Shown here in pieces: positions 1,123-20,347 of a stretch of 64,000 nt of DNA. The position numbers were made by a program, and so were the translations under genes. The notes beneath the pieces were generated by a model. That model was not told where the DNA came from and searched no databases. It saw nothing but the letters and a program-made list of their open reading frames with translations. Each line of letters opens with the position of its first letter. Position 1 is the stretch's first letter. Source of the stretch: Candidatus Harrisonbacteria bacterium (lineage in GTDB: Bacteria; Patescibacteriota; Minisyncoccia; UBA6257; 02-FULL-45-10c); assembly GCA_016192685.1 (NCBI GenBank), contig JACPTS010000001.1:529099-593098 (forward strand), in the 5' to 3' direction.

Positions 1123-1194
1123 GGGCAGTTAGTTTAATGGTAAAACGCTGCATTCACATTGCAGAGAGCATAGGTCCGATTCCTATACTGCCCA
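1123..1194 (+). tRNA. tRNA-Val (anticodon CAC)
   Basis: Manual cloverleaf. Acceptor GGGCAGT/ACTGCCC, D-arm GTTT/AAAC, anticodon stem CTGCA/TGCAG with loop TTCACAT, T-arm ATAGG-TCCGATT-CCTAT, discriminator A, no encoded CCA. Confidence 0.7.
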
Positions 1195-2741
1195 CAAGTA
1201 GTAGCTAAATTGAATATGGCGAGTTTACGGGTGCGGGGGTGACACAAGTAGTCCAACGGTTCGTTTAATACCGCTTGGACTATTTGTTTGTCTCTAATAA
1301 CTAATTTTTTAAAAAATGTTTTTGCCAGTAACGCTTTAAGTTCTGGCGAGGCCTTTTTATAGGCATAGTTGCAGTTTGCGGCCAACGCCAAAGCAATTTC
1401 AATTGTTTTTAAAACATTGGCAATTTTACTCTCTGATTTTGCTAATTCCTCGTTGAGTCTCTTTTCCTCGGTTTCTAAATCCACTTTAACGCTTTGAAAA
1501 AGTTCTAAATCGTTTTCGCTGGCTTTATTATCAATAAGTTGCAAAACAAGATTTTTCTTGCGTTGCTTAATACTTTCAATTTTTCCCAAAATGTCGGCAC
1601 GGGCTTTTTCATAAACTCCCTGCTCATCTTTAAATAAAGTTTTAATTCTATTTCTTATTTTTTCAACAAGGTTATTTGGCAATTGCACCACTTTAAGGAT
1701 TTCTGTGAATTGGTTTAAATAATCATTTTCTTGGCCATAGCTTTGATTACAATTAACCCGCTTACTGTGTTGCGATTTTAGGCAACGCAAATATCTAACC
1801 AAATCGCCATTTTTAAGAGTATGTTCCTCCACTGTCATTTTGCTGCCGCACTCACCGCAAAAAGCAATTGTTTTAAGTATTGAAAATAACCTGCGGTTGC
1901 GGCTACCGCCCCCCAGTCGGGCATCAAGTATTGCTTGTGCTTTTTCAAACAACCCCCTGTCCAAAAAAACTTCGTGCTTGCCGTTGGGGTTAATTAAACT
2001 GCCCCAATCAATAACGCCAATATAAAACTTATCCCGAAGCATTTTAGCTAAAAAACTGGTGTGCATTTTGCCGTTATTCTTTTTATGTTTCCGCAATGGG
2101 AACCCCTCTTTTTCTAAAACTTCAGTAAGGGTAGCAATTGAATAATTGCCAGTCGCAAAAAGTTCAAATGCTTTAATAACCCATTTGGCTTCTTGCCAGT
2201 TTATTTCAACCCACGCCCTAACTTTCCCCGTAGCAACTTTTTCCTGAACATTTTTATAGCCGTAAGGGGCTCGTGTAGGCCACCACCCCTCTTTTAATTT
2301 TTGATACATACCAGATTTAACCTTTTCAGCATTTTGCAAAGAAAAAAACTCAGCCACGGAGGATAGCACTCCTTCAAGCATTTGCCCCGAAGGGGTTTTA
2401 TCAGTTCCTTCGGTGGCCGAGCAAATCCTAATGCCGTGCTGTTCAAGGTCTTTTTTTATCAATGCAAAGTCAATGCGGTTACGAGCCAAACGGCTAATAT
2501 CATAAAATATAACCGCTTTAACGGTTTTGTCAGTTCGGCAACGCTCCCAAAGAACCCTAAATTGCGGGCGGTTGGCAGTTCTGGCACTTTCGCCTGCGTC
2601 AGTGTAAATATCCGTTGTTTCATCAACCCCATAGCCGTTTTGCTTGGCATATTCAAGACAACGCTCTTTTTGGGCGGGAATTGATAATCCTTTTTGGGCT
2701 TGGCGGTCAGTGCTAACTCGCAAGTAAATTAACGCCGTCAT
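1134..2741 (-). CDS. Large serine recombinase (integrase) of an integrative element
   Basis: N-terminal resolvase catalytic domain (ALIYLRVSTDRQ with catalytic Ser, IFYDISRLARN), long C-terminal recombinase/zinc-ribbon region (CGECGSKM...C), 535 aa. The 3' end overlaps tRNA-Val in antisense. Confidence 0.85.
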   Translation of the reverse strand: MTALIYLRVSTDRQAQKGLSIPAQKERCLEYAKQNGYGVDETTDIYTDAGESARTANRPQFRVLWERCRTDKTVKAVIFYDISRLARNRIDFALIKKDLEQHGIRICSATEGTDKTPSGQMLEGVLSSVAEFFSLQNAEKVKSGMYQKLKEGWWPTRAPYGYKNVQEKVATGKVRAWVEINWQEAKWVIKAFELFATGNYSIATLTEVLEKEGFPLRKHKKNNGKMHTSFLAKMLRDKFYIGVIDWGSLINPNGKHEVFLDRGLFEKAQAILDARLGGGSRNRRLFSILKTIAFCGECGSKMTVEEHTLKNGDLVRYLRCLKSQHSKRVNCNQSYGQENDYLNQFTEILKVVQLPNNLVEKIRNRIKTLFKDEQGVYEKARADILGKIESIKQRKKNLVLQLIDNKASENDLELFQSVKVDLETEEKRLNEELAKSESKIANVLKTIEIALALAANCNYAYKKASPELKALLAKTFFKKLVIRDKQIVQAVLNEPLDYLCHPRTRKLAIFNLATTCGQYRNRTYALCNVNAAFYH

Positions 2742-2744
2742 AAT

Positions 2745-3233
2745 TTATTTATAACAAACCTCTAATCCATAAAATATTCCGTCTATATTTTTTAGTGATT
2801 TTATGCGAAAAGGGTAGTTAGAATTATTGAGATTACTCGCTGTTCTCAATTTATTTTCTTTCCAATTTTCTCTTTTGGGATACACGCTTATTGCACAGCC
2901 AAGGCCACCAGCATCAATCAAGCGGCCACCTTCGTCATAAAAGATTCCTAATACAAGACCTTCTTTTTCCCATTCTGCCCAACCAACCTCATCTAAGGGA
3001 TAACCCTTGGGTTCTTCGCCACGAAGAGGTGAGCCAATAGCTGTTTTTATTTGAGAAAAGGATTTCCCAAAAAGAGAGGGGATATCAAATATTATTCCTT
3101 GAGTTGGTAATGGTGGTTGAGAATCGCCAGTTGATATAATCACAATAAATAGGATAAACAATGCAGCAAAGGTCATCGCACCAATAGCAAACTTTTTGCT
3201 TGGCCAAGTTTTATTTGAATTTTGTAATTCCAT
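2745..3233 (-). CDS. Hypothetical membrane-anchored protein (island cargo)
   Basis: N-terminal hydrophobic helix FAIGAMTFAALFILFIVIIS. No recognisable domain. Confidence 0.4.
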   Translation of the reverse strand: MELQNSNKTWPSKKFAIGAMTFAALFILFIVIISTGDSQPPLPTQGIIFDIPSLFGKSFSQIKTAIGSPLRGEEPKGYPLDEVGWAEWEKEGLVLGIFYDEGGRLIDAGGLGCAISVYPKRENWKENKLRTASNLNNSNYPFRIKSLKNIDGIFYGLEVCYK

Positions 3234-3296
3234 TTTATTTTTTTAATTATAATTGCGACCTTTTGGCTAAACCTTTTAGAAAATAAAAAGGGACAG

Positions 3297-3430
3297 CCAG
3301 AACCTGCAACCCACAGTATTGAAAGCCGTGAAGCTCCCAATTGTGGAGGTTTGGCTGCCCCTTTCTGCCCGCAATTGGGCTAAGTAGCAGCTCTTCACGG
3401 AAAAACAATACTGTAGGTTGCATTTTTATT
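3297..3430. repeat. Long imperfect inverted repeat / structured intergenic element
   Basis: tgcaacccacagtattg...ccgtgaag...caattg is mirrored by caattggg...cttcacgg...caatactgtaggttgca, giving arms of about 40 bp. Confidence 0.5.
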
Positions 3431-3489
3431 TTAACACCATATATTTTGATTAGTAAATTACTCCAAAATGTCTTTTGATAAACTTGGTG

Positions 3490-3852
3490 CTAATTTTCAC
3501 AAATTTTAATTGTTAATGGCGACTTTACTGCGGTGCGTAATACCACTCCTTTCTTCGCAAAATTAGTAATATAGTTTTGTAAGTAGTCATCCGTTACAGA
3601 GTTTTGGTCATAAACGATTAAAATCCGTCTAACAAATTCCGTGCTCAGCATTTCTTGAAGCTGATTTATCGTGCGGATATTTGCATCACCACATTCTTCA
3701 TCGGCAATACATTCGCTGATGTAAATATCCGTTTCTGGATTTATGTCAAAACCATTTTCCTTTGCGTATTCTAAACATTTCTCTTTTCGTAGCCCCAACG
3801 ATTCTTTGTGAGGCGCACATTTATTTAGGTAAATTAACGCTTTATTTTTCAT
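3490..3852 (-). CDS. Degenerate serine-recombinase catalytic-domain paralog (catalytic Ser replaced by Cys)
   Basis: ALIYLNKCAPHK...KCLEYAKENGFDINPETDIY aligns to the integrase N-terminus ALIYLRVSTDRQ...RCLEYAKQNGYGVDETTDIY, but the S-TDRQ motif is lost. 120 aa. Confidence 0.6.
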   Translation of the reverse strand: MKNKALIYLNKCAPHKESLGLRKEKCLEYAKENGFDINPETDIYISECIADEECGDANIRTINQLQEMLSTEFVRRILIVYDQNSVTDDYLQNYITNFAKKGVVLRTAVKSPLTIKICEN

Positions 3853-3857
3853 ATTTT

Positions 3858-4337
3858 TTAGTTATTAGCCAATATTTGCTTACGGGCATTATTTAATTTA
3901 TTAACAAAGTAATCAGCTTCATTTTGCGGTAATTGCTGCACTATTTCATATAAACTAAATTCTTTATTGTTATTGCTTTCTACTGGTTTTGGCGGCTCAA
4001 GCCGTAAAAGTTCGGCCTGCCCCCTTAAAAGTTTTTGCAGTGCATTCAATGCACCAATTTTGGCATTGCTATTATCCGCCTCACTAAAAACGCACCAGCA
4101 TTCTTTAATTGCCAAATCGTAAGCCAATACCTGATTACAGAAATAGCGGTCAAGGTTTAATTTTTTATTACGATTACCTACTCGCCGTGCGGCCACCCGC
4201 AAATATTCTTTGGCCGTTGCCCAGTTTTTAATTCCAAGCCGCCGCATTATTTGATATGGCTTTTTAACGCCTATTACAAATAAAGCTTCAGTTTCGTCTA
4301 ATAAATATTCTCGGTCTATGTTTTTATGATTGGCCAT
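3858..4337 (-). CDS. Hypothetical protein (island)
   Basis: 159 aa ORF in the leftward island block, no recognisable motif. Confidence 0.35.
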   Translation of the reverse strand: MANHKNIDREYLLDETEALFVIGVKKPYQIMRRLGIKNWATAKEYLRVAARRVGNRNKKLNLDRYFCNQVLAYDLAIKECWCVFSEADNSNAKIGALNALQKLLRGQAELLRLEPPKPVESNNNKEFSLYEIVQQLPQNEADYFVNKLNNARKQILANN

Positions 4338-4535
4338 AATGTTGGTTGGGTTTCCCCTAAATTGTGCAATTTTGGCACAATTTTACTTATAGAGTGCAAT
4401 TCTTGCACTATTTTTACTTGCTTTACTTTTAGTAAAGGATAGTATGCTAATTTTTAGCTTAAAATCTTGTTTTCTTTTTCTTGCCTGCCCGCAATGAGCA
4501 AACGAAAGTTTGCTCATTGCTTGCTTGTAAAGCAA
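4338..4535. promoter_or_regulatory. Intergenic cluster of inverted repeats (candidate operators or origin)
   Basis: aattgtgc-aattttg-gcacaatt, agtgcaa-ttc-ttgcact, and a perfect 13-bp inverted repeat gcaatgagcaaac-gaaa-gtttgctcattgc. Confidence 0.4.
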
Positions 4536-5030
4536 TTATTTGACGGTATTTTCTGGGTTATTCTCTGTAATATTTTGCCCATAATTGCAATTTGTTTTGT
4601 TTGTTTCTACAAATTGATTTGTGGCTTCTGACGGCTGGGCATTGGTTTTGCGTAACAATTCTAACAGTTTAATGACATTTATTTTAAAATGTCTTTTGGG
4701 CGGCACTCCCTCTTTTTTAACCTCTAAAATCCCTAATTGCTTCCATTTTTTAATTGCTGTGTCTTGCTCGCCTCGCGTTAGTTTTGTTTCTTGGGACATT
4801 TCCTTAATGGTTTTATAAATCCACCCGACCTTTTTCCCCTTTTCCCACCAAAAAAGCAATTGCGACATAAATAAACCAGCATTGGCACTTTTAGCTAATT
4901 CTGCCAATAAAGGGTTAAATGCTATAGGTTTTGCGGATAAGGCCTCTAACAATATCCTATTATAATTTTTGGGTAGTTTTCGGGTCATATTTTTTAGATT
5001 TTTTAATTTTTGATAGTGAGCCGTGCTCAC
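4536..5030 (-). CDS. RepA_N / replisome-organiser-like winged-helix protein (putative replication initiator)
   Basis: Motif LFMSQLLFWWEKGKKVGWIYKTIKEMSQETKLTRGEQDTAIKKWKQLGILE resembles RepA_N/DnaD-like N-terminal wHTH domains. Confidence 0.45.
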   Translation of the reverse strand: MSTAHYQKLKNLKNMTRKLPKNYNRILLEALSAKPIAFNPLLAELAKSANAGLFMSQLLFWWEKGKKVGWIYKTIKEMSQETKLTRGEQDTAIKKWKQLGILEVKKEGVPPKRHFKINVIKLLELLRKTNAQPSEATNQFVETNKTNCNYGQNITENNPENTVK

Positions 5031-5031
5031 T

Positions 5032-5052
5032 ATTTTGATAATGGTTTAAATC
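5032..5052. promoter_or_regulatory. 9-bp inverted-repeat candidate operator upstream of the RepA_N-like gene
   Basis: atagtgagc-cgt-gctcactat, directly 5' of the minus-strand start at 5030. Confidence 0.4.
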
Positions 5053-5139
5053 CTTTGCGACAAACACCAAAACACGAGCAATGGCATCAATTACCATTTC
5101 GGTTAAGACCCCCTTGTTATCGGGCTGATTTTCCATAAA

Positions 5140-5200
5140 TTAACGCCCCCAAGTAGCAGCCCGCCACCTTGAGGGCGTTAATTTATGGGAGCTGCTACTT
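5140..5200. repeat. Nested hairpin with aagtagcagc/gctgctactt arms
   Basis: ttaacgccc...gggcgttaa nested with aagtagcagc...gctgctactt. The 10-mer aagtagcagc also occurs at about 3383, and a near copy (aagtagtagc) lies just 3' of tRNA-Val. Confidence 0.4.
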
Positions 5201-5270
5201 TTTCAAAATTAAAAAGGGCTATATGCCCTTTATACACCCACTTTTTATTTAGCCCCGCCAACAATTGTTA

Positions 5271-6077
5271 CTATTGTTGTCCGTTAATATCAATATCAAA
5301 CCATTGTTTAATTAACTTTTTAATACGCTTAAATGCATTACCGACAGCTCCCGCCGTTGTTTTTAGTTCTTTTGCAATTTCACGGGCTGTAACTTGGTTA
5401 TATCTAATAACTACATCTTTTTTATATTCCTTTTCCAAGCCCCGAAGTTTTTTGGGAGAATAAGTGCCGCTCTTTTTAGCTATCACTAAAAAGCTGGACG
5501 GTAAATAATCCTTGCGCCTAACTGGATTTCCAATTCTTTTAATCAGCTTGTCAAAAATAACTAAATCTCTTTTAAATTGTTTTCGTGAGCGTATTGGTAG
5601 TGTTGTTTCTTTGGAAAAATAAAGTTTCTGTAAGTTTTTTAAATCATTTAAAGCCAGTTTTATTTCTTCTTTGTCTAAAAGGGCAAAAGTTTTAATAGAT
5701 AAATAATCAACCTCGCCGCTTTTTGGCTGGTGCTCAATAACAAAATTATAAACAGGGGGCACAATTTTATTTTTTAGAATGTAAGCCCTCAACCCATCGC
5801 CAAACAAGTTGATAAGGTGATAAGGCAATTTAAATTTTCGCCCCAATTGTTCTAATTGATTGCCGAATTTTAAATTGTCTTCTTTTTCATTAAGGGCTCG
5901 CTGCCAATTTGCCATTTGTTCGTCAGTAATAATACCGCTGCTGGGTATGTTGAATTGTTGTCTAATCGCGACGGCTTCTTTCTGGAATTGGGGTAATCTA
6001 ATCAATAATTCAAGCCGCATTCGGTTACGAAATGCGGCAGAACCCAAATTGATTGGTTTTTCGCGGCGGGCTGCCAT
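5271..6077 (-). CDS. Hypothetical protein with C-terminal HTH (sigma-70 region-4-like)
   Basis: C-terminus VTAREIAKELKTTAGAVGNAFKRIKKL is a helix-turn-helix. 268 aa. Confidence 0.4.
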   Translation of the reverse strand: MAARREKPINLGSAAFRNRMRLELLIRLPQFQKEAVAIRQQFNIPSSGIITDEQMANWQRALNEKEDNLKFGNQLEQLGRKFKLPYHLINLFGDGLRAYILKNKIVPPVYNFVIEHQPKSGEVDYLSIKTFALLDKEEIKLALNDLKNLQKLYFSKETTLPIRSRKQFKRDLVIFDKLIKRIGNPVRRKDYLPSSFLVIAKKSGTYSPKKLRGLEKEYKKDVVIRYNQVTAREIAKELKTTAGAVGNAFKRIKKLIKQWFDIDINGQQ

Positions 6078-6170
6078 ACAGGCATAATTTAAGGGACTGT
6101 ATCCAAAAAATCAATATACTACCAGCTTGTCTTAAGTAATTTTATACGATAAAATAAAAGCACTTAAAAA

Positions 6171-6359
6171 ATGATTTCCAACGAGGCACTAAAAGAATTT
6201 AAGAAAATTTGGCTTGAAGAAAAAGGCACAGAAATTTCTGATGCGGAGGCAATGGATGAAGCATCTAATCTTTTGACTTTGTTCAATGCTGTTTATCGCC
6301 CCGTGAAAAAAGAGTGGCTGGAAAACCAACCAGAGGAAAAAGGAGATAAAAAATTATGA
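6171..6359 (+). CDS. Small hypothetical protein (first gene of cargo operon)
   Basis: 62 aa, acidic. Its stop overlaps the next start (ATGA), consistent with translational coupling. Confidence 0.35.
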   Translation: MISNEALKEFKKIWLEEKGTEISDAEAMDEASNLLTLFNAVYRPVKKEWLENQPEEKGDKKL

Positions 6360-6961
6360 TTATAGACTTCCCAAAAATCAAAGAAAATTTACACAAAGGA
6401 ATGGAAATTTTCTTACGACAAGAAATTAACCGTAAAGCTCCTTTTGCGGCAACGATTGGCAAACACTTCTTTCACGAAGGAGATAAGTCCTCTTACGAAA
6501 CAGTTGACCGTGAAAAAAAAGCTCTTGATTTTAAACGAGGCGAGAGTCAATTTACGGTAACTCGTGATGAAATGAATAAGTTGACCATAAAAGACATAAT
6601 TCAAAAAGTTCAAGGTATCGCAGAAGATATGGCGGGACAAATAGAGCGTAATCTATTCCAAACAATGAACGAAACTATTGAAAAGTCTGGCAATACAATA
6701 CCTGGTAATCCGCCGTTCTCGCCAGAAGCATTTTTGAAGGGTCTGGAAATGGTTGAAATTGATTTTGATGAGGATGACCGCAACAAACCTCAACTTCCCA
6801 CGCTGGTGATGCACCCAGACCTTGCGAAGAAAGCCAAAGAGCAGGAAGCCAATATGACAGCAGAGGAAAAGAAAGCCTTTGACGAAAAGATGAAGGCGAT
6901 GATAGATAAGAAATATGATGATTTTCTCACCAGAGAAGCCAAAAGAAAATTGGTGGACTAA
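6356..6961 (+). CDS. Hypothetical protein (cargo operon)
   Basis: 201 aa, charged/coiled C-terminus, no recognised domain. Confidence 0.4.
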   Translation: MIIDFPKIKENLHKGMEIFLRQEINRKAPFAATIGKHFFHEGDKSSYETVDREKKALDFKRGESQFTVTRDEMNKLTIKDIIQKVQGIAEDMAGQIERNLFQTMNETIEKSGNTIPGNPPFSPEAFLKGLEMVEIDFDEDDRNKPQLPTLVMHPDLAKKAKEQEANMTAEEKKAFDEKMKAMIDKKYDDFLTREAKRKLVD

Positions 6962-8615
6962 ACTCCTCTCCCGCCTTCTTGGAACGAAACCAGCAATTCA
7001 GGAGAGCGTGAAGGAGTCCAACCCGTTTTTGGAGCGAACCATTGAAAATTGGTTAAACTCCGCAAATGAAATGGGTTATTTAATGCCCTTCAGCCAGCTT
7101 CTGTTAAGCGAGGAATTTAGTATTTGTCATACCTCACGTCAAAATGCTTTTGAGCAAGGCAAAGATGTGGTTGCGCTTGATAAGCACGGAAGCTCCCACG
7201 CCTTCCAACTAAAGGGCGGCAACATTACGCATAGCAGATGGCTTAAGGAAGTTAAAGGAGAGATTGAGGAATTGATTGATTTGGCTATTGAGCACCCATC
7301 AGTCAGTAAAGGGAGTAAGCACAAATCTTATTTGGTAACCAACGGTGAATTGGAAGACACGGTGCGAGTGGCGATTGATAATCTTAATTCAAACAAGTGG
7401 AAGGAAAACCCTCTTGAAGTGATTACCTACGGACAACTTTTGAGGGGGTTTGTGGCATTAAGCAATACTTTCGTGCCGCAGAAAGTTGGAAACTATAAAA
7501 CATTCCTTGATTTATACTTCAGCAATGGCGGCGGGTTAATTGACGAAAGGATTTTCTCTGATTTTATCGCTGATGTCTTGAGACTGAAGGAAGACGGTTT
7601 GTTTAAAGAAGAACGGCGAAGAAACGTTGCGGCGGCTGTATTATATACGAGCTACATCCTTGCTCCGTTCAAAAAAGAAAATAATCACATCGCAATCATT
7701 CAAATTCTTACCCTGCTTGGGAGTCATATTATGGCTGTGGCAGAGAAGTTTTCCCTCCCAGAAAAGTATTGGGAAGAATCATTCAAAATCATACAAGACG
7801 AAATTTTCCTTACTGGAGGTAGATTACAGGAAGAAATTACAAACGATGGGCTGGTTACGCTCGTTAATTCAATGTGGGATGGCGAGATTGGTAGTTACAG
7901 AAGGCATCTGGCGGTGAGCTATCTATTCTCCTTCAAGTTAGCTCAACTTTTTGAAAAGAACACTCTGTGGAACAATGCGGTCAATGATGCGTTCTTCGTG
8001 AAGTTAAAAGATTCAATGAAACTGTGGGGCGAAGGCGCAATCTATTCATTGATTGTATGCTTCCTGTATGTGAATAGGGCTTTGAGTAAAAAAGAAGATG
8101 ATAGAGCATTTTCTCCGCTCTTTACTGCCCTTGAGGCAGTCTTAAAATTCAATAGTCCAGATAGTAAATTTGGTTTGTTGTCGCCATATTACGGAATCAC
8201 GTTTGCAATTAAGCGGCGGTATGGACAGCTTGAGGAACCGTTGGATGAAAAGTTCACTGGGCGGTCATTCTTGATACGGTCTCTGATTGACCTTTTGGCA
8301 CGCCACAGTAGGAGGTTAGAGTTGGAAAAGTATTGGAGAGCTATAACACATATAGCCCAAGACAAATTCATTCCTGAAGAATTATGGCAACATTTTACTT
8401 GGCATTGTGATAAGGGCGATAATCAATCCGAGTTTTCCAATCAAACTCAAAGCTGGATAGAGTTAGTAAAGAATGCTAATGCAATTGATTTTGACTCAAT
8501 ACCAAAAACCATTCAAACGCATCTGTCTTTTTTACCTCTTTTTTTACTTGTGTATCCGCACAGAATAAACAGTAATTATATAAAATTTTTAGATGAAACT
8601 GTTAAAAATGCCTAA
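6915..8615 (+). CDS. Large hypothetical protein with possible N-terminal PD-(D/E)xK-like nuclease motif (cargo operon)
   Basis: 566 aa. GKDVVALDKHGSSHAFQLKGG fits a D...(E/Q)xK pattern. The rest appears helical. The true start is uncertain because of a 46-nt +1 overlap with the upstream ORF. Confidence 0.4.
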   Translation: MMIFSPEKPKENWWTKLLSRLLGTKPAIQESVKESNPFLERTIENWLNSANEMGYLMPFSQLLLSEEFSICHTSRQNAFEQGKDVVALDKHGSSHAFQLKGGNITHSRWLKEVKGEIEELIDLAIEHPSVSKGSKHKSYLVTNGELEDTVRVAIDNLNSNKWKENPLEVITYGQLLRGFVALSNTFVPQKVGNYKTFLDLYFSNGGGLIDERIFSDFIADVLRLKEDGLFKEERRRNVAAAVLYTSYILAPFKKENNHIAIIQILTLLGSHIMAVAEKFSLPEKYWEESFKIIQDEIFLTGGRLQEEITNDGLVTLVNSMWDGEIGSYRRHLAVSYLFSFKLAQLFEKNTLWNNAVNDAFFVKLKDSMKLWGEGAIYSLIVCFLYVNRALSKKEDDRAFSPLFTALEAVLKFNSPDSKFGLLSPYYGITFAIKRRYGQLEEPLDEKFTGRSFLIRSLIDLLARHSRRLELEKYWRAITHIAQDKFIPEELWQHFTWHCDKGDNQSEFSNQTQSWIELVKNANAIDFDSIPKTIQTHLSFLPLFLLVYPHRINSNYIKFLDETVKNA

Positions 8616-8777
8616 TTGGCGACACTCATTAAGTTGGCCGCCGCCAATCGATTAAAGCAATTCTCAAACAAAATACGCTGGTATTCGCTTAATTTTTGCG
8701 ATAATGTATTGATGTATTCAATTAGTGTCCTGTTAAGCCCACCAAAATTAAAAAAGCTTCGTTAAACGAAGCTTTTT

Positions 8778-9449
8778 CTAATCTTCTTCTTCCTTCTTGG
8801 CTAATTCCGTGGCAACTATTGTAATCCCAATTTTTAACTGGCCAACGATTTTTTCCATATGCAATTCCGGTTGGGAATTTAAAGTTATTTCTACATAACC
8901 GTTTTTTGTGCCAGAGCTATTATAAGTAGTGACGCAAACCATTGATTTCCCATCTTTTTCAGTTTTTTGGAAAGTACCGTACATAGAGCCATCTTCTTTT
9001 TCAAAAAGGTTGTCAGTTTTAATTGTTTTTTCACCATTTTGTTCGGAATCATATATAAAGTTGAACAATTCAATTAAATTTTGGGCTTCTTCAGGCCGAA
9101 ATTCGGTATATTTCAGGAATTGAATGAAACTTTTACCATCCGTAGTATTTTCCAAAGAAAGCATTATTTTTTCTGGATGAAAATCCTCCGGACTAGCTGG
9201 CCAGGCATTAATTGAAACTATTTTTATTTTATTTTTTGGCTGCTCCTGATATTTTATTCTGATGCTTAATTCATCCCAATTTACGCCATAAAAAAACATT
9301 GCTATTTTTTGGTACCATTTTACATTTTGAAATTCAAGATCGTAATGAATTATTTGTTCTTTGAAATTTGTTTCTTCCGCGAAAGCAACGGCAGTGAAGC
9401 GGGAGATGAAGAAAAGAAGCAAGATTGGCGCGGTTATTAAGCGGGCCAT
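8778..9449 (-). CDS. Secreted hypothetical protein
   Basis: N-terminal signal peptide MARLITAPILLLFFISRFTAVAFA. 223 aa. Confidence 0.45.
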   Translation of the reverse strand: MARLITAPILLLFFISRFTAVAFAEETNFKEQIIHYDLEFQNVKWYQKIAMFFYGVNWDELSIRIKYQEQPKNKIKIVSINAWPASPEDFHPEKIMLSLENTTDGKSFIQFLKYTEFRPEEAQNLIELFNFIYDSEQNGEKTIKTDNLFEKEDGSMYGTFQKTEKDGKSMVCVTTYNSSGTKNGYVEITLNSQPELHMEKIVGQLKIGITIVATELAKKEEED

Positions 9450-9710
9450 TCCTTTTAAATTTTTATTTTAAATAACCTTTTTAAGGTTATTCTATTTTTA
9501 TGAAAATCACAAGTCTAATCAGGCGAAATTCCAGGGTGTGGATAACCTGCGGATAAAAAAGCCATTTTAGCTTTATTTTTTAGCCTATTTTGGCGCTGGC
9601 TGGCATTGTTAAATTTTTAATCCAAGTGGGGTACAATTAAATGGTAGTGGGGAATTGTGGATAAGTATGGGGATAGAGCGTCAATCAGGGGATAAGTTCC
9701 ACTCGCTGTA

Positions 9711-9842
9711 CCTTTCTTTCTATCGGCACCGGCGTCGCTTCGCTCCAGCGGCGAAGCGCGCCTACGCCTCGCTCCGAAAATTTTCGCTTCGCGAAAAACC
9801 AATCTTTTTGGAGCTCCGTAGTTGCCGTACAAAAGAAAGGTA
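9711..9842 (+). repeat. GC-rich palindromic repeat element, family A, copy 1
   Basis: Core cggcaccggcgtcg...cgcctacgcctcgctccgaaa...ttcgcttcgcgaaa...ggagctccgtagttgccg with terminal inverted repeat acctttct/agaaaggt. Sits at the right edge of the integrative element. Confidence 0.7.
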
Positions 9843-9894
9843 AGCTCGCTAATTGTTGTTAGTTGTGGGTCGTTAGTCATAAGTCATAAGTCAA

Positions 9895-10326
9895 ATGTTT
9901 ATAGGCGAATACCAACATTTAATAGACGATAAAGGCAGATTGGCGGTGCCGGCTAAATTTCGCGGCGCTTTGAAAAATGGCGCGGTAGTTACTCACGGAT
10001 TAGACCATTGTCTTTTTGTTTTTGAAAAAAAGGAATGGGGGATTTGGGCCGGTAAAATAAAAGCCATGCCGATTGCCAAATCTAATTCCCGGGCCTTTGG
10101 CCGTCTGATGCTTGGCGGCGCCATGGAAGCATCCTTGGATGTTCAGGGCAGAATTTTAATTCCTGATTATTTACGGGAATATGCCGGATTAAAAAAGAAT
10201 GCCATCGTTACCGGTTTGTATAATAGACTGGAAATTTGGGATGCCGAAAATTGGAAGAAATATAAATCAAAAACCGAAGCCTCATCTGAGGATATTGCCG
10301 AACAGTTGGATGGCCTCGGTATATGA
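9895..10326 (+). CDS. mraZ: Transcriptional regulator MraZ
   Basis: MFIGEYQHLIDDKGRLAVPAKFR, 143 aa, first gene of the dcw cluster. Confidence 0.9.
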   Translation: MFIGEYQHLIDDKGRLAVPAKFRGALKNGAVVTHGLDHCLFVFEKKEWGIWAGKIKAMPIAKSNSRAFGRLMLGGAMEASLDVQGRILIPDYLREYAGLKKNAIVTGLYNRLEIWDAENWKKYKSKTEASSEDIAEQLDGLGI

Positions 10327-15166: not shown

Positions 15167-15352
15167 CGCTCGGCTTTAATTTATTTTCGAACGGCTGCTC
15201 CGGCATAAACAAAACTAATTCGCTCATAGCGGAAATTTATCACCCTAGTCATTCTTCCTGGGTACCCCGATAAATTTCCTATTCGCTCAAAGTTTTGTAA
15301 TATGCCTCCGCAATGTTCTCAAATAAAATAAAGCCTCGCTTAACTGTTTATT

Positions 15353-20129: not shown

Positions 20130-20155
20130 ATTTCAATTATATCACAGCAAAGTGA

Positions 20156-20291
20156 GCTACCTATCTGCCGTGCGGCAACTACGGAGCCGCAATTTGCTCG
20201 GTTTCGCCGAAGGCGAAAAATTGCGGCGAGGCGTAGGCGGCGCCGACCGCAGGAGTCGGCGAACGCCGGTGCCGATAGGCAGATAGGTAGC
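20156..20291 (-). repeat. GC-rich palindromic repeat element, family A, copy 2 (reverse orientation)
   Basis: cggcaactacggagc...gaggcgtaggcg...cgccggtgccg with terminal inverted repeat gctacctatctgcc/ggcagataggtagc. Confidence 0.7.
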
Positions 20292-20300
20292 GAGCGTCTT

Positions 20301-20327
20301 TTGGCACTCTATTGACAAGAGTGATAA
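20301..20327 (+). promoter_or_regulatory. CIRCE-like HrcA operator (imperfect)
   Basis: TTGGCACTC-N9-GAGTGATAA compared with consensus TTAGCACTC-N9-GAGTGCTAA, directly upstream of hrcA. Confidence 0.65.
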
Positions 20328-20347
20328 AAGTTTTATAATGCTTTAAT

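Follow-up and report, generated by a model that had tools for sequence, protein, structure and literature searches.

A stand-alone initiator-type winged-helix protein and a conserved repeat array at the 3' end of its gene, candidate replication module of a recombinase-bearing island in Candidatus Harrisonbacteria

Combinations of a recombinase, a winged-helix initiator and iterons are already known from integrative elements. [quoted passage not shown] By analogy, PLE is the closest precedent for the locus analysed here, a winged-helix gene within a block of mostly unannotatable genes in the genome of Candidatus Harrisonbacteria, which belongs to the Parcubacteria of the Candidate Phyla Radiation (CPR). 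The window, to which all coordinates refer unless another locus is named, is a stretch of 64,000 nucleotides (contig JACPTS010000001.1, positions 529,099 to 593,098), and the gene lies near its beginning in an integrative island of about 8.6 kb. We favour, with a probability of roughly 0.55, the interpretation that the encoded protein is a stand-alone origin-binding domain which, paired with a repeat array at the 3' end of its own gene, acts in replicating the excised island or in controlling its copy number. New with respect to the known elements are a family that extends across the CPR, an initiator reduced to one domain, putative origin DNA overlapping the 3' end of the initiator gene and conservation of the repeat core across phyla.

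The winged-helix gene (4536-4988, minus strand) encodes a protein of 150 amino acids, the counterpart of the origin-binding-type domain with which phage O-like/DnaD-like initiators begin. A first-pass annotation of the region, made from the sequence, had described a 164-aa protein with a RepA_N/DnaD-like winged-helix signature. The longer open reading frame (ORF; 4536-5030, minus strand, from GTG 5030) is real, but homologues and the NCBI annotation, which lists an identical hypothetical protein, favour the ATG at 4988 as the start. The initiator type was borne out by the PHROG profiles: phrog_9773, 'replication initiation O-like', aligns its positions 7-141 of 288 with residues 29-161 of the longer form (E=3.7e-29), and phrog_6493, a DnaD-like helicase loader (E=4.6e-14), phrog_428 and phrog_678 also match, all through their N-terminal parts. 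Membership of RepA_N did not hold in Pfam, which returned no family at E<=1 for the 164-aa ORF, including RepA_N (PF06970), Phage_rep_org_N (PF09681) and HTH_36 (PF13730); what the window encodes is the N-terminal half of an initiator only. The full-length relatives of phages Ab9 and X29 and of a Chloroflexota locus (L039; related loci and contigs carry L numbers) have no Pfam match either, and therefore this initiator clade appears to be uncurated in Pfam rather than unrelated to replication. Scans of NCBIfam and PADLOC yielded nothing useful for the protein, and a profile search of PDB sequences nothing significant.

With tblastn, homologues bearing an O-like or replication-protein annotation were retrieved from 93 phage records and from 38 records of plasmids or phage-plasmids, and the full-length relatives, of 258-287 aa, are located in replication modules. 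Thus, the O-like protein of Vibrio phage X29 (266 aa) is followed by an annotated DnaC-like loader, the L039 initiator by an IstB/DnaA-type ATPase recognised by Pfam, and the initiator of L040 by a close homologue of the L039 ATPase (same cluster, same GGVGNGKTHL Walker A). In the Chloroflexia locus L038 (10434-11132) the initiator seems to be divided between two ORFs, an N-terminal one of 158 aa and one of 232 aa with TETT-type repeats, and a DnaC-like ATPase comes next; the arrangement may represent a frameshift or a stage intermediate between long and short forms. An AlphaFold model of the window protein, built with 45 homologues, has a confident winged-helix core at about residues 20-118 and a disordered tail at 119-150; the protein ends after this 30-aa tail, with no RepA_N-like host-specific C-terminal domain. 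Fold comparison gave about 8-13% identity to RepA_N structures, MarR, CRP and CodY-type regulators being equally close. The third helix is the usual recognition helix of a winged helix; as predicted here (residues 72-84, LTRxEQDTA) it is near-invariant among homologues and common to phage Ab9, which would fit with a near-invariant DNA motif as its target.

Such a motif was found at the 3' end of the gene. K-mer enrichment over 32 related loci flagged CTCTGTAATA / ATTACAGAGA at this end and nothing convincing upstream of the gene. Within a 270-nt zone CAGAGA reaches a density of 6.3 per kb, 27-fold that of the remainder of the loci (0.23 per kb per strand); one or more copies occur in 33 of 37 loci and two or more in 21 of them, with a step of 12 nt (12 cases) or 13 nt (10 cases) between successive copies, and the consensus of the iteron unit is approximately (T/C)TA-CAGAGA-n-TAC-t (ACAGAGA-nTAC units). 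Relative to the first CAGAGA, CAA[AT][CT] piles up at about -54, -33/-32 and -12/-10 nt, a phasing of about 22 nt, and TTGC at -45 and -24 nt (35 loci in both cases). The CAAAC boxes often form CAAAC-NN-GTTTGC palindromes, and the consensus of alignment A2 reads CAAACCAGTTTGC...ACAAAC..TTGC...AGCAAACTATTACAGAGA. As judged by eye and uncounted, CTTTACAAG-type palindromes (e.g. TCTCTTTACAAGAGA) follow the iterons in L008, L014, L028, L034, L006 and L007, and AT-rich GCAA...TTGC palindromes lie beyond them in relatives. Some loci have the CAGAGA motif in frame, so that it is read as a tail of the type ITENTQENT or TETTTETT, while in 10-11 others it stands after the stop codon; by construction it uses GAG, whereas GAA is the commoner glutamate codon elsewhere in these genes (185 versus 92). 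Conservation therefore acts on the DNA, and the 'conserved but disordered' protein tail is thus translated cis-acting DNA.

The same DNA recurs well outside the CPR. In a 12-locus DNA alignment that includes two cultured phages, invariant columns fall in ...CAAACTATTACAGAGA..., through TAT-TACAGAGA, and the block (...CAAACTATTACAGAGAGTACAGCAGAGAATAC... and ...CAATCTATTACAGAGACTACACAGAGATTACCAGAGACTAC...) is located mid-gene in the full-length initiators of Acinetobacter phage Ab9 and Vibrio phage X29. A CTATTACAGAGA-type block with 12-13-nt units, placed right after the domain-coding part, is common to the window, Ab9 and X29. The exact 16-mer CAAACTATTACAGAGA was also searched in IMG/VR, where it retrieved 82 stretches; among the 80 analysed, 12 carry it in register, 250-650 nt downstream of the start of a homologue on the same strand, one has a homologue but out of register, and the remaining 67 have no homologue match and look like chance occurrences.

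In the window, the array begins in the 3' part of the gene with two CAAAC-type boxes of the ~22-nt phased repeat (ACAAATCAATTTGT, ACAAACAAAACAAATTGCAA; 4609-4622 and 4585-4604, spanning 4585-4622, minus strand). These are followed by the iteron-like units (4545-4579, minus strand), GGCAAAATATTACAGAGAATAAC with a perfect core (4557-4579) and then the degenerate CCAGAAAATACC (4545-4556), which are translated as ...NITENNPENT before the stop codon at 4536-4538. Directly past the stop codon come the palindrome TTGCTTTACAAGCAA (4521-4535), a perfect 13-bp hairpin (4491-4520), an AT-rich stretch (4409-4482; 72% A+T over 4409-4490 versus 59% in the whole window) and, just upstream of the gene at 3858-4337, two operator-like palindromes 30 nt apart, AAATTGTGC-N7-GCACAATTT and GTGCAAGAATTGCAC (4359-4408). 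The latter include GTGCAA-N3-TTGCAC-type palindromes at 4364-4378 and 4394-4408, and AT-rich GCAA...TTGC palindromes occupy the matching relative place in L001, L014 and L025. The layout, as read from the sequence, is that of an initiator with its putative origin inside or just behind its own gene, as is the case for lambda O (ori-lambda within the O gene) and for RepA_N plasmids. The 150-aa protein probably binds the array, and we lean towards regarding the last ~90 nt of the gene together with the 198-nt spacer, about 4359-4622, as its cognate origin-type DNA. The strong PHROG matches to replication initiators, joined to this cognate array, also lend partial support to the proposal of the first-pass annotation that the element may derive from a plasmid or phage, and point to a phage-derived element.

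The island that carries the module is flanked by host genes, rplJ-rplL and tRNA-Val(CAC) (175-1195) on one side and mraZ-rsmH-ftsL-PBP (9895 onward) on the other. Positions 1132-9790 form a separate contig of 8,659 bp, with 100% identity, in one Logan assembly, three similar contigs existing besides, and Logan rplL contigs stop at 1161 while mraZ contigs begin at 9779 (at least 10 samples each); contig breaks at both edges and a contig of its own thus delimit an island of about 8.6 kb. At its edge lies a large serine recombinase (1134-2741, minus strand; Pfam Resolvase E=6e-32, Recombinase 1.5e-7, Zn_ribbon_recom 6.8e-8). This arrangement is widespread: a large serine recombinase at the edge of the island lies shortly downstream of the winged-helix gene, on the same strand, in at least 27 of the 31 species loci of CPR type, a tyrosine recombinase being found instead in L022 and L025 and a distant serine recombinase in L033. 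Across loci, winged-helix proteins are 44-61% identical versus 24-33% for the accompanying recombinases, and judged from these loci the linkage between initiator and recombinase is independent of recombinase type. It is somewhat better than an even guess that initiator, array and large serine recombinase form the conserved backbone of an integrative, possibly satellite-like, island of ~8.6 kb.

So tight a synteny with large serine recombinases could also be expected of a recombination directionality factor, i.e. a winged-helix protein switching the recombinase from integration to excision, and factors of this kind are diverse, some of them being replication proteins (PMC12286644). The difference in identity just mentioned speaks against such a role, as do the occurrence of the protein beside tyrosine recombinases and, in viral contigs, near terminases with no recombinase in view, the possession of its own conserved DNA target, and the fact that known factors show no consistent synteny with the integrase (PMC12286644). 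We regard this explanation as very improbable.

Sister elements carry a further component. Between array and recombinase, eight loci have a gene of family F5 (L001, L018, L021, L026) or F6 (L013, L017, L020, L027), and those members of the two families that were tested are terminase small subunits (phrog_4102, E=7e-21; phrog_6299, E=3e-11); a different gene in this slot matches phrog_2538 in L014 (E=5e-6), and that of L028 is similar. The sister loci with a terminase small subunit have no terminase large subunit between initiator/origin and recombinase, and their gene order, putative initiator/origin, terminase small subunit and recombinase, is a satellite-like architecture. Viral contigs of IMG/VR bear the short form as well: in L050 a 114-aa version is directly followed by TerS, TerL and a 594-aa ORF, and in L109 a 162-aa version precedes TerL by ~4.4 kb, a major head protein being encoded beyond. 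Judging by these two contigs, the short form is not a mere wreck.

The latter point bears on a further alternative, namely that the gene is an inert remnant, a truncated prophage replication gene without current function whose neighbouring hairpins are ordinary terminators. It would explain why the protein is half of a full-length initiator, and it agrees with the generally hairpin-rich spacers of this genome and with the terminator-like appearance of one upstream hairpin. The short form is nonetheless intact, with its invariant residues kept, in 76 homologues from more than 30 species-level genomes; its architecture is always the same, it is not restricted to cellular genomes, and the non-coding part of the array is conserved too. 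Decay without function is the least probable of the explanations considered here.

If the pair is a replication module, the recombinase (1134-2741) would excise the island as a circle, the protein would bind the repeat array and either mark there the start of replication or control copy number, and the replisome would be supplied by the host or, as in phage satellites, by a co-infecting phage whose initiator is of the same family. Replisome recruitment by O-like, DnaD-like and RepA_N initiators requires the C-terminal half; borrowing would be obligatory because this half, the loader, the helicase and the primase are all missing. Several observations weigh against a replicative role. The C-terminal half of the phrog_9773 profile is unmatched, the protein ending at profile position 141 of 288, and no helicase, primase or loader was recognised among the island proteins by Pfam, PHROGs and NCBIfam scans. 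The array of the window is weak, having one perfect and one degenerate CAGAGA unit versus two to four units in many relatives. The island-only contig (L044) shows no terminal overlap, hence no circular form was seen, and the same is true of all the full-length small contigs that carry the module (0 of 11 with terminal overlap). Finally, the array lies directly upstream of an operon ending in the recombinase, and in several loci it fills the whole spacer directly before the recombinase (L008, L009, L011, L016, L030 and L034 among them), a position that fits an operator equally well.

The protein could also be a transcription factor, a co-opted initiator domain that acts through this operator on the downstream operon, from the 159-aa gene to the recombinase, and times excision without any replication. 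Besides its place between the winged-helix gene and downstream genes of the same strand, the array offers the two operator-like palindromes just upstream of the start of the next gene; the absence of the replisome-recruiting half and a fold equally close to regulators of the MarR, CRP and CodY types are also in keeping with a purely regulatory protein. On the other hand, the same array stands mid-gene in the full-length phage initiators, where it cannot be a recombinase promoter, its composite layout of phased boxes, iterons, palindromes and an AT-rich stretch is origin-like, and the module is present in true viral contigs before terminase genes with no recombinase in view. Control of transcription as the sole function is the main rival of the replication model, in our opinion rather unlikely, albeit far from negligible. 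Initiators commonly autoregulate through their iterons, and therefore the operator and replication roles are not exclusive.

Another possibility is anti-phage activity by decoy or origin piracy, in which the truncated initiator would be dominant negative, or the iterons would titrate a phage initiator, so that the island protects its host. Islands and phages have the core of the iterons and the putative recognition helix in common, and viral contigs whose initiators are most similar to the CPR type carry the same module. The variable cargo of sister islands includes defence genes, L003 having a TaqI-type restriction-modification system together with AbiV, and L001 a DEAD-box helicase, and replication of PLE contributes to interference with its helper phage (PMC7145576). 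In the window, by contrast, none of the island proteins is matched by a PADLOC model; an interaction with phages is hypothetical, and the constant pairing with a recombinase is explained no better than by the replication model. We consider a protective decoy improbable.

The hairpins that had drawn attention to the locus deserve separate consideration. The perfect 13-bp hairpin of the first-pass annotation is indeed present (GCAATGAGCAAAC-TTTC-GTTTGCTCATTGC; arms 4491-4503 and 4508-4520, 4-nt loop). Its centre, GCAAAC-N4-GTTTGC, is of the family-wide box type, similar palindromes occur in L011, L019, L025 and L029, and no T-run follows it on the transcribed (minus) strand; it is, to judge from these loci, one piece of a family-wide composite element whose diagnostic part is the direct repeats. 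Folding against shuffles gave z=-5.3 and z=-6.5 for the spacers on the two sides of the winged-helix gene. In a control of 21 spacers of the window the median was z=-3.7, i.e. intergenic regions are hairpin-rich in general; the downstream spacer (4338-4535, 198 nt) ranked second (z=-8.1) and the upstream spacer seventh (z=-4.1), an ordinary value. By this measure, hairpin richness beyond what is usual in this genome is confined to the downstream spacer. Thus, the dense inverted repeats claimed for both sides all exist, those upstream being ordinary and unconserved, and the reading of the locus as an origin or autoregulated initiator holds as to origin-like DNA at the 3' end of the gene, where direct repeats, and not the inverted repeats then cited, are the informative features. 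Extreme folding values were also obtained elsewhere, at 15167-15352 (z=-9.0), 20130-20347 (z=-7.3) and 3234-3489 (z=-6.0), with no Rfam match at gathering level; these may be uncharacterised structured RNAs or repeat elements.

Upstream of the gene, a perfect 9-bp inverted repeat, ATAGTGAGC-N3-GCTCACTAT (5013-5033), is unique in the window, where 0.02 are expected by chance. It had been placed at the gene start; its position is instead 25-45 nt upstream of ATG 4988, and it falls within a called 58-aa ORF (4960-5136) that has no homologues in related loci. This ORF starts at the base of a long hairpin (5133-5200) with a stem of 21-25 bp (5133-5189) and an overlapping 10-bp repeat (5151-5160/5191-5200); its 21-nt repeat (5133-5153/5168-5188) is 95% complementary, no T-run follows on the transcribed strand and the arm sequence does not recur in the window. 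An inverted-repeat comparison of 37 loci found no counterparts of the 9-bp and 21-nt repeats, and the upstream inverted repeats were dropped as a family feature. The possibility that the hairpins belong to RNA genes was likewise set aside, no known RNA family being found by Rfam in 4200-5400 either at gathering level or at E<=1. A further hairpin with a T-run (5213-5231, minus strand), after the 268-aa gene at 5271-6077, looks like the terminator of that gene.

Regarding the rest of the island, the 3' end of the recombinase gene overlaps tRNA-Val (1123-1195) on the opposite strand, its last ~20 codons being antisense to tRNA-Val(CAC). In at least 10 samples the breaks between Logan contigs fall within this tRNA gene, the rplL contigs ending at 1161 and the island contig starting at 1132, which suggests an attachment site, or population heterogeneity, at the tRNA-Val/recombinase end. 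No displaced tRNA-Val fragment above shuffle level was detected at the far end of the island, and no empty integration site was found for it. Next to the recombinase, a 120-aa ORF (3490-3852, minus strand) is a paralogue of its N-terminal catalytic domain (38% identity over 82 aa, E=9e-12); this paralogue is probably inactive because the catalytic motif YLRVSTDRQ is replaced by YLNKCAPHK, and might regulate the recombinase or serve as its decoy. The slot of the terminase small subunit in sister elements is taken by an all-helical 159-aa protein (3858-4337, minus strand), for which several searches of the slot gene found no similarity to terminase small subunits.

On the strand opposite to the winged-helix gene, a 62-aa protein (6171-6359, plus strand) without a family match in Pfam, PHROGs and further scans belongs to family F2, small proteins (46-99 aa) that accompany the winged-helix gene in 13 loci. 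The cargo genes (6356-8615, plus strand, and 8778-9449, minus strand) encode proteins of 201, 566 and 223 aa without a credible match in Pfam, PHROGs, NCBIfam and PADLOC; matches are weak for the 201-aa protein ('major head protein', E=0.027) and the 223-aa protein (E>=0.007), and apart from the former no virion structural gene was recognised in the island. The far end of the island holds a DnaA-box cluster (9537-9664), with perfect TTATCCACA at 9537-9545 and 9656-9664 and a one-mismatch box at 9548-9556, in a GC-richer, ORF-poor stretch upstream of mraZ. Rfam gave nothing within 9506-9950 and sub-threshold matches only (E 0.44 and 0.98) at 9400-9505. The winged-helix module itself has no DnaA boxes of note, a single site with one mismatch being located at 4932.

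Should the pair act as proposed, a short protein and a DNA element of ~260 bp would provide a testable handle on the persistence and movement of small CPR islands. To our knowledge, CPR bacteria cannot yet be genetically manipulated; the predicted binding motif is precise, and common to cultured Acinetobacter and Vibrio phages. For metagenomes, a winged-helix gene and a CTATTACAGAGA block beside a recombinase make a marker pair for islands, possibly satellites. The case also illustrates that what looks like a conserved disordered tail in a family of proteins can be cis-acting DNA that is translated and, if it is true that the N-terminal domain alone suffices, it bears on how RepA_N/O-like initiators recruit the replisome. 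It is tempting to speculate that CPR/Patescibacteria harbour widespread minimal phage satellites made of a recombinase, a domain-only O-like initiator and an origin, often with a small terminase, in which the replisome of a helper phage would fire the origin and the initiator might blunt helper replication; we put this forward as a doubtful generalisation. In the paper library searched, phage satellites and Patescibacteria are mentioned together in two papers, neither of which treats satellites of Patescibacteria in its title or abstract.

Set against the known systems, the locus resembles each of them in part. RepA_N plasmid initiators (pSK41, pTZ2162; PDB 4PTA, 4PT7, 4PQL) differ from the window protein, which has no Pfam RepA_N match, about 8-13% identity to these proteins and no C-terminal domain. 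Staphylococcal cassette chromosome (SCCmec-type) elements are likewise moved by recombinases, carry replication proteins and, according to PMC7581432, are thought to replicate after excision; they encode a helicase and a primase, have no O-like initiator and use a different target site. Phage-inducible chromosomal islands (PICIs), such as the Staphylococcus aureus pathogenicity islands (SaPIs), combine an integrase, rep/ori and a small terminase, and the sister elements, ordered as initiator/ori, terminase small subunit and recombinase, are similar to them; by contrast, no terminase small subunit was recognised in the window, SaPI Rep proteins are helicases, and the SaPI-type integrase is a tyrosine recombinase whereas that of the window is a serine recombinase. 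With phage O-like/DnaD-like initiators (PHROG 9773; X29, Ab9) the window shares a homologous N-terminal domain and the CTATTACAGAGA-type block after the domain-coding part; theirs are proteins of 258-287 aa with a C-terminal half, usually with a DnaC-like loader next door, while the window protein stops within the array and no loader was seen in the island by the Pfam, PHROGs and NCBIfam scans. Unlike the present module, PLE has a RepA with a C-terminal domain and an origin in a separate non-coding region; here we find the N-terminal domain only, an array that overlaps the 3' end of the gene, a CPR host and no sequence-level membership of RepA_N. Nonetheless, PLE and the Harrisonbacteria element have in common an integrative island, a large serine recombinase, a winged-helix initiator-type protein, a repeat array and the lack of a helicase and primase of their own (PMC7145576).

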